Of a stretch of 64,000 bases of DNA, positions 3,831-37,880 are shown piece by piece. The position numbers and the translations under genes were made by a program. Source of the DNA: Podarcis bocagei (lineage: Eukaryota). Every line of letters begins with the position of its first letter. The stretch's first letter is position 1. Where the stretch lies: the NCBI GenBank assembly GCA_964188305.1, contig OZ076886.1; one strand, 5' to 3'. Under the pieces are notes generated by a model, which worked only from the letters and a program-made list of their open reading frames with translations, searched no databases and had not been told where the DNA came from.

Positions 3831-4236
3831 TTCCGAGTGTGAGCCATACTGAGGTCTACAGACCAATGGTCTACCTCAGTATAGGCCAGTTTCCCATGTC
3901 TCACTCATATACAAGCACACAATAATACACATTCACATTGACAGAAGAGGCAACCGGGTCCACATATGCAATGGGATGCATTCACAGAGTAGCCCTCATA
4001 TTTATATTCAATTTTTCCACCAAGGAGCTCAAGGAGGCATCCATTGTTCTCTCCCATCTCCATTTAATCCTCACAACAGCGATGTGATGTAGCTTAGACT
4101 GAGAAAGAGGCACACGGAGAACAGAAGTCACTTAAAGAGAACCCTCAAGTGTGTTCTCTACATCCAAGGTATAGGTGGGGACCATTTTGCATGGGGGTTC
4201 CGTTTCTGGCCCCCGCATCGAGCGAGCAAAAGCCGC

Positions 4237-4832
4237 TGTGATGGCCTGGGAATCAGATTCAGAGGCTGAACCGGAGGAATCCCAGCCTGCACAGGAGTCC
4301 CCGCCTCCAGGGCCTGCTGAGCTGGGGCAGGGCCTTGATTCTGAAGCGCCTGCACCTGTGCCGGATCCTCAGGAGCAGGCACCAGGTGAATCCACTCTGG
4401 CTCCGGAGGCGATTGAGGACGCATTGCCTACAGGTGCGCCTTTCCCAGCCCTGTCAGGGGAAGGTGCGTCTCCCCCTGGGTCCAGTAACCCTCCGGCCTC
4501 TCCTGAGCTGCAGAGGCTCAGGGCAGAGAGGCGGAGGGAACTGGTTTCCTCCAGGAGGAGTGCTCGCCTTAAGGCCAGGAGAGGCGGGTCACCTGGGGGC
4601 CGGGGCTGCCCCCAGGTGACCACTATAAAGGCCAGTCAGCCCGGTCCCAGGTTGCGGGAGCAACGTCATTGAAGAGCTGTTTCGGCCAGCACCCAGTCCG
4701 GTTCCCCCAGAGTTCCTGTCCTTGCCCGGCTCCTCGCTGTGGACCCCGCTTTGCCCATGGAGGACTGTCTGCCGACCCTCGACTCAGGTCCTGGACCTCG
4801 CCCCATGGTAACCTCCCCCCTGGACCAGCACA
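4237..4832 (+). mobile_element. Solo LTR (probably Gypsy/Ty3-type)
   Basis: TG...CA termini with imperfect terminal inverted repeats (TGTGATGGCCTGGG / CCTGGACCAGCACA), perfect 5-bp TSD GCCGC (4232-4236, 4833-4837), TATAAAG at 4624-4630. Confidence 0.85.
4241..4672 (+). CDS. 143-aa ORF inside the LTR U3 (acidic/Pro-rich N-part, Arg-rich RRSARL C-part); retroelement-derived, expression unknown
   Basis: Uninterrupted frame MAWESDSEAEPEES...ERRRELVSSRRSARLKARR...; ATG at LTR nt 5 in a gtgATGG context. Confidence 0.4.
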   Translation: MAWESDSEAEPEESQPAQESPPPGPAELGQGLDSEAPAPVPDPQEQAPGESTLAPEAIEDALPTGAPFPALSGEGASPPGSSNPPASPELQRLRAERRRELVSSRRSARLKARRGGSPGGRGCPQVTTIKASQPGPRLREQRH

Positions 4833-6474
4833 GCCGCACATCAATTGGATGCACCTAAAATAGTTGCTGCCTGTATTTTTTTAAATATTTTTCGGTAGTC
4901 TCCATTCATCATTTGCCCAAATTAAATCTTAGTATGGTGGAAACCATGGCTTGAACTGCATAGCTAAACCTGGCAAGGAGAGCAAGCAAATGCCTCTACC
5001 TGCTTGACTTTGCCAAGCAACTCTGAGGTTGCTTGGTATGCTGAGAACACTGTTATGGGTTTTGAATGGAAGGACAAAGCAGCAATACTTTTGAGATTCA
5101 ATAAGAACACATTCCTATCTTGCCAGAAAACATTAGCACATCAATTCTGCTGATAACGTTGGATTGATCATCATAGGCAGGAAGCCTGTTCTGTATTTTC
5201 TGATACTTACATTAAACCAAAAACATACAAAGTAAAGAGCAGATAAAGAACATTAAAGGCAGAAAAGCCTATTTGGTATCAAATATAAAATCCCTTCCAC
5301 ATGCAAAAATAAGGAGAAAAGAAATCCCTGCAGATTTCAAAGGAAGTTACACAAGTAATCTGGAATGGGCGGCATTACATCTGAGAGCAGAGCAAAAGTA
5401 AAGCTTGTATCAATATTCTAAGTATTCTGAAGCGTAGTCATTTGTCATGCTCTGCAAATAGACAAGATTCTTAAAGTATCAGAGCATTTCATCTTTTTAA
5501 AACACATCCAGTCATTTTTTAAAATTTCTTAGCTGCACACCTTCAAATGCAGAGTATTTATTGCCATTCTTTAAAGAAATTTCTTTCCTGTGTTGTAACA
5601 ACGTAGTAGATGTTCCGTATTTATTGTGTTTCACATAGATCCATATTGAATGCACTTAGAATATAAGGAAATGGCTCAGTTTATTGCCAGCCCTGTAAAC
5701 TCAGCCTGGCATTTGAGGTGTGCCTTACACAAATGAGTGCAAAGTGCTTCCAGACCCTTCACAACCTCTTCAAAAAATACCTGTAGGCTTTGATCATTTG
5801 GTTTTCATGTAGAAATATACAGATTACACTTTGTTATAAGCAAAAGGCCATCACACAAGTCACATTGCCTCATTTGTCAGGTATACTTATATGCATATCA
5901 ACACCCACCAGCGAATTAGGTAAATAAGCCACCAAGCTTATTCAGGCAATTAAGAAATACCCTACTATAGTAGTTGATTTCTGATCTTAAGGATCTCTGG
6001 GCTCCTTGGGGAGAAGGCCAGGATAGATATTTAATAAATACTAAATATGTATGGATAGAATCCATCAATCGGCTATAAGCCACAGTTTTCTAGGAAATGG
6101 TGGTTTAAATTCAGGGTGACTATCCCACAGTTCAGAGACCTGATCTGGACACAAGATTACAATGACTTTGGAACAAGCAGCAAAAAAGGGGTGTGTGAAA
6201 TAGTGCTGGGATCAGTAGAGTGCAGTAGCCTGATGGTGATGAAAATTGTCCTCTTCCTGATTTTCAAACTGATCATTTGATGAGCAGATCAGCTGATGAG
6301 AGGAGAGAGTATGATAGGTGTCTCCACTCACTTTTGCTGGTGTGTGTGGTCCTAGGAGAGTTGGCCAAAGATTAATGCACCCAAGGATAAAAAGACTAAG
6401 CCACCCCTCGGTTAAACTAACCATGGTTTTTGTAATCTTGAGTTCCTGGTTCTGGGGAAAAGGCAGGGTATGGG

Positions 6475-35205: not shown

Positions 35206-36970
35206 TCCCTGTAAATATACTTACTGCAAGGCTGTGTATACATTACCAGTGTAAATCACAGCTAGGTAATTCCTTGTCACAATTTGAATCTAAGCCAGTT
35301 GGGGGTGGGGATGCATCGAAATGCAATATTTCATAAGGAATGACAGGAAAGTCCATGTGACTGGTAAGAGCCTCATTCTAGTCCTGCTGCCAACTCAGCC
35401 TACAGTCACACGGGATGCAGGTGAGTTAAAGAGAATATATAAGTATATCAAGGAACTCTGCCAGCCTGAGCTTTAGCTTTCTCACAGATTGCACCATTTC
35501 CTTGGGCTCAAATCCTGAGAGCTTCTCTGGGTTTTGTCCTTTGTCAGTCCCAAGAGCCCTTTTTAAAAAGAAGCAGCCTTATTGATGCTTGTGTACTTTA
35601 AATCCTCAGGAAAACTATCACCAACTTTTTGCAAGTTTTCCGTTATTTTTAAATATTTAATAGAGTGCACAAAAGTGTTTGTTTTTTCAAGACTGATTCT
35701 GCAGCATGTTAACATGCACTTTCCTCCTGAACGTACCCTTCTTTTGAGATCTCTCACTCTGTGTGTGTGCATGTTTTAAACGACCTTTAAAAAGCATTTT
35801 CCTGCATTGGATCATCAGAAATAAATGTTCCCTGGGCATTACAAAGCTTGGCCTGTGTGGTATACACAAAAATGAAAAGAACAGCAGAGTTCACCTTGCA
35901 AACTCTTTGTTGTTTGCAGGGGGACTTGAGCGCATCCTGTGACCAGAGAAGAGTGTGTTTGCCCTTCCACAGTGTTCTTGACAAAACTAGACAAGGGCTA
36001 ACTGTGCAAGCCACTCAGGATAAATGTAACAGATCAGGTGTAAGGGCCTGTGTCTCGAGGACAATCTCAATGCTCATTCTTCCGCAATCTGCATTGGGTA
36101 GTCATAAAATCCTACTTACTATTTGGCAGGATGCAGCTGATGGCCAAGCTCCAAGGGAGCTTGCTTCCCCTCTCCCTGCCATAAAGCATGCTGTGCTCCA
36201 ACTGCCAGTTGCCCTGGGACACCAGAGCTAAGGGAATTTTGCTCTGGCTCCAGGCAAGGAAAGACTAACCAGGCCACATCTATCGGCCAGGAAAGGGACA
36301 GCTGCAAACAGCTTGCCCTGCTCCCCCAGAACACTTGGCTCCACTGCATGCTTTGCTCTCCCCTCCCTCATTCCCTTTTCCTTTTGTGTTCTGTCTGTTA
36401 GGAGGAGGAAGAGGAAAGGCCTCAAAATGGCACTGCGAATGTACTTGTAAAATTATAATAGAACATCCAACTTGTTTCAGTAGCAGCTCGTCCACAGTCC
36501 CCTTGTCCTGTACCTAGAAAGCATGGGTCTGAGTGGTTTTCCATGTGTTCCAGGCCTTCTAGGCACAAGTCTGAGTGCCCTGCTGCTTTCCCTCTGAAAA
36601 ACCATTGGGGAAAGCAGAAGTGTGTCATCGTAGGCCATTATTGAGGGGCACTTTCCAAGGATACCATTTTCCTATTAAGGCAGCATCTGAATAGGGTGTT
36701 GCCTGGAATGTATTGTTTACTAGAAATAGCAGCTACAGAATCAAAGAGGAGGTGGGGTTTCTTTTCATCAGGGAAACATTGTGGGCAGGAAAAGCAAACC
36801 CCCTTGCCCCACATGTCAGAGACTGGATCTGGATCAGAGCCCCAAGTAGCGGCTTTCTGTGGGGAAAGTGGCAAATTCGAAGCTTACCGTATTTTTCGCC
36901 CCATAAGACGCACTTTTTCCCCTCCAAAAATGAAGGGGAAATCGGGGTGCGTCTTATGGGGCGAATGCCT

Positions 36971-37617
36971 GCAAGCCTCGCGCGCCCGGCAGGAGGTCCC
37001 ACCGGGTGTGCGAGGCTTGGGGCAGCAGCCTGTCGCCCGAAGCACGGGGAGCCCTCCGGAGGGCTTCCCCTGCTTCGGGCGAGTGTCTGCAAGCCTCGCA
37101 CTCCCGGCAGGAGGTCCCACCGGGTGCGCAAGGCTTGGGGCGGCAGCCTGTCGCCCGAAGCACGGGGAGCCCTCGGGAGGGCTCCCCCTGCTTCGGGCGA
37201 GTGTCTGCAAGCATCGCGCACCCGGCAGGAGGTCCCGCCGGGTGCGCGAGGCTTGGGGCGGCAGCCTGTCGCCCGAAGCACGGGGAGCCCTCGGGAGGGC
37301 TCCCCCTGCTTCGGGCGAGTGTCTGCAAGCCTCGCGCACCCGGCAGGAGGTCCCACGGGTGCGCGAGGCTTGGGGCGGCAGCCTGTCGCCCGAAGCACGG
37401 GGAGCCCTCCAGAGGGCTCCCCCTGCTTCGGGCGAGTGTCTGCAAGCCTCGCGCACCTGGCAGGAGGTCCCACCGGGTGCGCGAGGCTTGGGGCGGCAGC
37501 CTGTCGCCCGAAGCACGGGGAGCCCTCGGGAGGGCTCCCCCTGCTTCGGGCGAGTGTCTGCAAGCCTCGCGCACCCGGCAGGAGGTCCCACCGGGTGCGC
37601 GAGGCTTGGTGCGGCAG
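36971..37617. repeat. 118-bp GC-rich tandem array (~5.5 units), each unit two hairpins
   Basis: Units start at 36971, 37089, 37207, 37325, 37442 and 37560. Confidence 0.95.
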
Positions 37618-37622
37618 ACTGT

Positions 37623-37880
37623 GCTTCTAGGTGTGCGCAAGCAGTCCGCTAGCCTTGGGAGAGCCGCGGGGCTCTCCCAGGGCTAGCGGACTGCTTGCGC
37701 GCACACAGAAGCTTGGGGCGCGCTGAGCTCGGCACGCCCCAAGCTCCTGGTGTAGCGCAGCGATCCGCTAGCCCTGGGAGAGCCCCGCGGCTCTCCCAGG
37801 GCTAGCGGACTGCTTGCCGGCACGCAGAAGCTTAGGGCGCGCTGAGCTCCGCACGCCCCAAGCTTCGGGATTAGCGCAGC
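37623..37880. repeat. Second ~119-bp tandem unit (2 copies), palindromic
   Basis: TCCGCTAGCC recurs at 37645 and 37764; long and short hairpin in each unit. Confidence 0.9.

Follow-up and report, generated by a model that had tools for sequence, protein, structure and literature searches.

The 64,000-nucleotide stretch of Podarcis bocagei DNA analyzed here (contig OZ076886.1; the window) contains a solo long terminal repeat (LTR) of a chromovirus family whose pol frame continues into the 3′ LTR. Copy comparisons and a modeled complex incline us, by a modest margin, to regard the LTR-encoded C-terminal tail as a nucleosome tether that would act through its RRSARL motif and give the integrase a second hand on chromatin. 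The features of the window copy are as follows.

4232–4236, plus strand: left target site duplication (TSD), GCCGC (sequence).
4237–4832, plus strand: solo LTR with TG and CA termini, from a Tf1/sushi-type chromovirus family present in many genomic copies (own-genome copies, TSD).
4241–4672, plus strand: U3 frame encoding the C-terminal tail of Pol/integrase, 143 amino acids here and 129 in sister copies (copies, junctions).
4241–4480, plus strand: acidic, proline-rich linker, amino acids 1–80, predicted to be disordered (composition, AlphaFold2).
4484–4543, plus strand: conserved SP-rich lead-in and predicted basic helix, amino acids 82–101 (selection analysis, AlphaFold2).
4553–4570, plus strand: HMGN-like RRSARL, amino acids 105–110, a predicted docking element for the H2A-H2B acidic patch (alignment, complex model).
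4587–4621, no strand assigned: perfect 14-bp inverted repeat (arms 4587–4600 and 4608–4621), private to the window copy, which shifted the end of the frame (copy comparison, fold).
4624–4629, plus strand: TATA-like box, TATAAA here and GATAAA in sister copies (copy comparison).
4654–4663, plus strand: GCGGGAGCAA, putative R start and self-primer, complementary to the primer binding site (PBS) behind the 5′ LTR (full-length copies).
4833–4837, plus strand: right TSD, GCCGC (sequence).

The element is 596 bases long, begins with TG and ends with CA, and has the 5-bp GCCGC on both flanks, in agreement with the TSD-bounded LTR described in an earlier, sequence-only reading. That reading had also described an open frame containing RRSARL and encoding an acidic-then-basic protein. 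Both points hold: the frame runs for 143 amino acids from the ATG at 4241 to the TGA at 4670–4672, with 17 D/E and no K/R in residues 1–80 and 11 K/R in residues 88–115. A frame in a single copy is weak evidence because an open frame of at least 129 codons was found in 42% of base-shuffled LTRs (n = 2,000; 10.6% had an ATG-initiated frame of that length), and it is the family that carries the case.

The frame does cross the TATA box in the window, as had been noted, but no other copy shares its length of 143 amino acids or the literal TATAAA, because the variant with the inverted repeat was found once in the genome. The repeat (fold z = −4.7) replaced the usual stretch of sister copies; the window LTR differs from its nearest copies at 32–38 positions, 12–15 of which lie within 4600–4625. 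At the box, 26 of 30 copies tallied have AGAAGATAAAGG, and the stop codon of the tail in the window's subfamily is the TAA of GATAAA. The inverted repeat likely arose by a template switch that gave the window copy its canonical TATAAA.

Sister LTRs were collected from the same genome, where 40 of 2,520 candidates were scored and proved 92–95% identical. Among 29 next-best loci that were fetched, 24 had a 5-bp TSD and 27 had a frame of 128–129 codons. Flanking sequence tied these LTRs to a retrotransposon: gag lies on the 3′ flank of L012, and the 5′ flank of L014 holds the end of a chromodomain and a polypurine tract, both in the reading phase of the LTR frame, an in-frame junction within the window's own subfamily. 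Fuller copies measured 4.6–5.7 kb, some with internal deletions. Pfam searches of full-length relatives returned DUF4939 Gag, RVT_1, RT_RNaseH, Integrase_H2C2, rve, SH3_Tf2-1, and Chromo, which is a Gypsy domain order with the chromodomain after the integrase. The three positions that we take to form the aromatic cage are occupied in the family's chromodomain sequence.

A C-terminal extension of a Gypsy pol/integrase into the 3′ LTR, one of two origins proposed earlier for the frame, was confirmed in these full-length relatives. Gag-pol is one continuous frame that passes through the integrase core, SH3, chromodomain, and polypurine tract and stops at or just before the TATA-like box in the 3′ LTR, so that U3 encodes the last 114–142 residues of the polyprotein. 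Approximately 50 of the best 150 chromodomain matches, counted by eye, lay in open frames of 1,552–1,593 amino acids. Single frames of 1,564 and 1,558 amino acids end inside the 3′ LTR, and the family is judged to be young because the LTRs of these two copies are 100% and 99.85% alike. The LTR frame of subfamily B is also in frame with pol (L175), and a Podarcis muralis UniRef protein (A0A670IJD3) ends in the family's tail. In a protein search with the chromodomain, which favors intact frames, 30 loci were fetched, and 21 of the 29 listed read in frame as far as the motif position. The frame in a solo LTR is a by-product of LTR–LTR recombination.

The family shares Gag DUF4939, reverse transcriptase, RNase H, integrase, SH3, and a C-terminal chromodomain with Tf1/sushi-group chromoviruses (vertebrate V-clade: Sushi-ichi and Amn-ichi/ni/san, named in PMC6317226). 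It also shares TG...CA LTRs, a 5-bp TSD, and a PBS complementary to the start of R (here putative) rather than to a tRNA; that source describes this self-priming arrangement for Tf1/sushi elements. Ten bases behind the 5′ LTR are complementary to R at window 4654–4663 in five of five full-length copies, and the 10-base pairing is retained in the centroid fold. With R beginning at 4654, the presumed transcription start site falls downstream of nearly the whole frame. Unlike the Tf1/sushi group, Pol here adds approximately 130 residues past the chromodomain, most of them LTR encoded. In a quick integrase tree, built without named V-clade references and with at least two own-genome rows (L127 and L135) left out as too short, the family grouped with other squamate elements; this family, a sister family (family E), Anolis proteins, and a Rhineura protein came together (SH-aLRT 92, not starred).

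The tail had no Pfam match at E values up to 1 and no match among PDB sequences at E values up to 10. AlphaFold2 predicted no ordered fold for residues 1–87 and a helix at 88–113 (mean pLDDT 63.5). The tail was then modeled with the H2A and H2B encoded by this genome, alongside three controls and in three runs. The complex scored 0.64 and the best of the three controls 0.02; individual runs gave 0.64, 0.66, and 0.02, with at least 41% of contacts in common and a partner pLDDT of at least 44. The score mark is reached by 51 of 78 solved versus 2 of 108 mismatched microbial pairs (39 of 65 versus 2 of 126 for eukaryotes), but peptides and disordered partners lie outside the calibration of the tool, and the pass may reflect memory of like complexes such as that of Dsup. 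Confident contacts joined tail residues 102–110 to H2A E61, E64, and L65 and to H2B E105, L106, and H109, presumably all acidic-patch residues, and H2A D90 and E92 were absent from the confident contacts of the model. With peptides outside the calibration and the Dsup complex already described structurally (PMC13347269), the pass shows likeness.

In the accessible parts of PMC13347269 and PMC12480509, such motifs in HMGN2, Dsup, and Dot5 are reported to bind the acidic patch, and the RRSxRL-type motifs of the non-HMGN proteins Dsup (tardigrade) and Dot5 (yeast) use the same three arginines on it. The family's RRSARLKA matches seven of the eight residues of RRSARLSA, and the tail holds RRSxR(L/I) with the three key arginines within a disordered region, as those proteins do; its binding to the patch is predicted. 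Unlike HMGN, it has neither a full nucleosome-binding domain nor a stand-alone small protein, RRSARLKA being fused to Pol. When the basic block was shuffled, 1.5% of the shuffles contained the looser RRSxRL. We suggest that the tail would be retained on the mature integrase and that RRSARL, bound to the H2A-H2B acidic patch, would tether the integration complex to nucleosomes. The disordered acidic linker would supply reach; the basic helix and RRSARL would hold the face of the nucleosome, and the chromodomain would at the same time read a methylated histone tail.

Selection on the tail was estimated from pairwise distances between natural copies only. Of 110 LTR starts gathered, 83 were kept; stops, frameshifts, truncation, or the lack of a motif-like match removed the other 27, and because the filter demanded such a match, the invariance of the motif is inflated. 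Net dN/dS between subfamilies A129 and B was 0.36, compared with 0.59 within groups (ratio 0.61, bootstrap 0.36–0.95; P = 0.02); the other five frames gave ratios of 0.86–1.82 in the same comparison, and third positions diverge approximately twice as much as first or second positions. Across 11 subfamily pairs, which leave out single-copy group D versus A129 (0.69), net dN/dS was 0.23–0.50 for the whole tail and 0.00–0.24 for the basic block. Taken alone, the basic block was borderline (ratio 0.49, 0.17–1.10). The distance to the end of the motif is 97, 103, 113, or 121–125 amino acids depending on the subfamily, and every indel keeps the frame, including those tolerated in the acidic linker. 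Silent codon changes between subfamilies were found at 8 of 15 retained residues in amino acids 82–104 and at 7 of 17 in the acidic part. These comparisons point to purifying selection of moderate strength on the tail between subfamilies, and they show selection at the protein level for the tail and its helix.

The motif itself behaved differently from its surroundings: RRSARL had synonymous changes at 0 of 6 residues versus 15 of 32 other retained residues (Fisher p = 0.037). Its codons are silent-invariant, and a DNA or RNA element may therefore be what selection keeps. A search for the motif pattern with other serine codons gave five matches, none in this family's LTR. The main alternative, which we consider less likely, is that the tail is real but that its basic helix serves nuclear import or general DNA/chromatin affinity; the RRSARL bases would then be kept as a promoter or RNA element in U3, and their likeness to HMGN would be coincidental. 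In its favor is the contrast between the six unchanged codons and the helix before them, which has silent changes. It also draws on family E, which has an arginine-rich block in the same place without RRSARL, and on Ty1 integrase, which has a C-terminal targeting domain (PMC7459421, in the part available). Against it, the fold model placed these very residues on the acidic patch, RRSARL keeps the three arginines required in Dsup and Dot5, and a dual constraint on protein and nucleic acid is possible.

Long-range RNA pairing with the 5′ leader is a mechanism in Ty1. In favor of the alternative, the 18-base RRSARL island paired with the leader better than 94–98% of U3 windows (9–23 of 362 did better); against it, the island was not the top partner in any of five copies, and covariation was absent. 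A Ty1-like pairing was not convincing. The earlier suggestion of nucleosome tethering thus stands in part: the modeled complex agrees with it, and the lack of synonymous change and a sister family without the motif weigh on the other side.

Family E supplied a comparison for the tail. Among 30 own-genome SH3 matches, 25 belong to family E (L131, L135, L136, L143, L144, L146, L151, L155, L156, and L172 among them), to which P0073 is also assigned, and five (L127–129, L139, and L141) belong to another family whose frame ends directly behind the chromodomain or breaks before that point. The pol of family E also enters its 3′ LTR (L172), so that read-through recurs without RRSARL and the motif is not conserved among families. 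Behind its degenerate chromodomain lie one or two acidic FxGF motifs (x variable), at least one of which is found in 24 of 25 loci (L145 is truncated). Two Anolis proteins (P0148 and P0152) are without a chromodomain and keep one FxGF motif. According to the accessible part of 10.1101/624023, FxGF is the consensus of proteins that bind the LEDGF IBD; the family E motifs may possibly be a tether of the LEDGF/TND type. Profile comparison of the two tails detected no homology (probability 0.65%), and PDB searches with two FxGF-bearing pieces gave chance matches only.

Post-chromodomain tails of 116 chromodomain-bearing relatives had a median length of approximately 23 residues. Tails of at least 100 residues were found in 21, and among these 21 a D/E content above 17% was confined to this family and family E. 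RRSARL was confined to this family among the 116; RRSx{1,2}R was present in 12, this family's included, versus 2.0 in shuffles, although the rows are related and not independent. Protein searches with the tail returned Podarcis sequences only, a weak guide to its range, since protein annotation is lacking for most reptile elements. As a separate observation, RRSS[AV]R was found in 6 of 116 tails versus 0.01 in shuffles, and P0059, P0070, P0071, P0112, P0120, P0124, and P0011 end, a little way past the chromodomain, in RRSS[AV]R or RRSSR; these are distant chromoviruses, at least one of them fungal (Podosphaera). Such ends might serve as a short motif for the acidic patch, or they might simply follow from a DNA element close to the polypurine tract.

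We consider it improbable that pol simply lost its stop codon and runs on neutrally through a GC-rich, stop-poor LTR, even though equally long frames are common in shuffled LTRs and the acidic part is only weakly constrained (ratio 0.63, 0.33–1.10). Neutrality would also accommodate the junctions: of 30 loci chosen for DNA likeness, 10 keep one frame between chromodomain and LTR, the remainder carry a shift within or close to the G-rich stretch that precedes the LTR (natural or homopolymer error), and the basic block is out of frame in 12. Yet constraint on the whole tail was seen in this frame only, accompanied by the third-position excess and by subfamily indels that are all in frame. Eleven junction loci have a common U3 frameshift, which in L064 is confined to the 3′ LTR and so arose after insertion; these eleven copies probably multiplied as DNA. 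In a further locus (L061, 2317–3053), a fragment of another Gypsy pol lies directly 5′ of the 5′ LTR, with an open frame into the LTR frame, as a nested insertion. Contig C19 (G000) was strongly enriched in junction-bearing and family E copies, many of them near-identical, and may be a repeat-rich, possibly sex-limited chromosome with DNA-level duplications.

U3 accessory genes of the nef and sag type have their own reading frame and are translated apart from pol. The other origin proposed earlier, an independent protein of this kind made by solo LTRs from their own ATG, is the least probable of all: a good start context (GTGATGG in 27 of 29 sister copies) and several Podarcis gene models that begin at the LTR ATG, one of them joined to other sequence (RefSeq XP_077791897), speak for it, but those models are predictions, the frame is continuous with pol, its ATG falls inside the terminal bases of the LTR, family E reads through in the same way but lacks an ATG at that place, and U3 lies upstream of the presumed start site, with no reads on the unique flanks of the window copy in four RNA runs.

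These runs came from two studies, and 6–12% of each was read. Reads on the LTR were thin and on both strands, as many copies would give, and depth was zero at 3862–4169 and 4940–5700 in all four, which may derive from other species or from animals without the insertion. Expression of the solo copy thus had no support in the four runs, which does not imply silence. The idea that solo LTRs leave behind an ATG-started frame survives insofar as the frame is kept; lying upstream of the presumed start site, it would need a host transcript, and none was evident in these runs. Separately, subfamily B LTRs (L097–L126) have a splice-donor-like GTGAGT after the motif, and a Podarcis muralis RefSeq model (P0032/P0035) joins the LTR frame to other sequence at GTGAGT, a possible exonization of the tail.

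Continuation of pol into the 3′ LTR is already known from plants. In the accessible part of PMC3059260, pol of the centromeric CRM group A retrotransposons enters the 3′ LTR with a targeting motif, as pol does here; those elements have the CR motif instead of a chromodomain and are primed by tRNA-Met. By contrast, this family keeps an intact chromodomain and a self-complementary PBS, and its LTR adds a second module. Ty1 and Ty5 likewise have a short C-terminal motif in the integrase region that tethers to host chromatin, as the motif here would, but those elements are Ty1/copia with non-histone partners and experimental support (PMC7459421, in the part available), whereas this one is Gypsy, LTR encoded, and predicted. 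Our literature searches found no paper on this family, on read-through in reptile chromoviruses, or on an HMGN-like motif in a retroelement, nor any that connects the integrase of a retrotransposon with FxGF or TND motifs; by these searches the HMGN-like integrase motif is undescribed, although repeat databases or supplements may record the read-through.

If RRSARL binds as modeled, a retrotransposon integrase would have a direct anchor on the histone face, taken over from an architectural protein of the host and working next to a chromodomain. Because the tail lies in U3, each round of replication copies its code and each solo LTR retains it, which would offer the host a nucleosome-binding exon. 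The FxGF motifs of family E suggest an exchange of tethers within one clade. More speculatively, squamate chromoviruses may have made the LTR and the region upstream of it a platform for integrase tethers that mimic host proteins, with an HMGN-like branch and an FxGF/LEDGF-like branch in which the chromodomain decayed or was lost, and thousands of solo LTRs would then scatter a nucleosome-binding exon. Elsewhere in the window, positions 36885–37877 hold a tandem array of approximately 118-base units, with inverted matches between units and long open frames on both strands.
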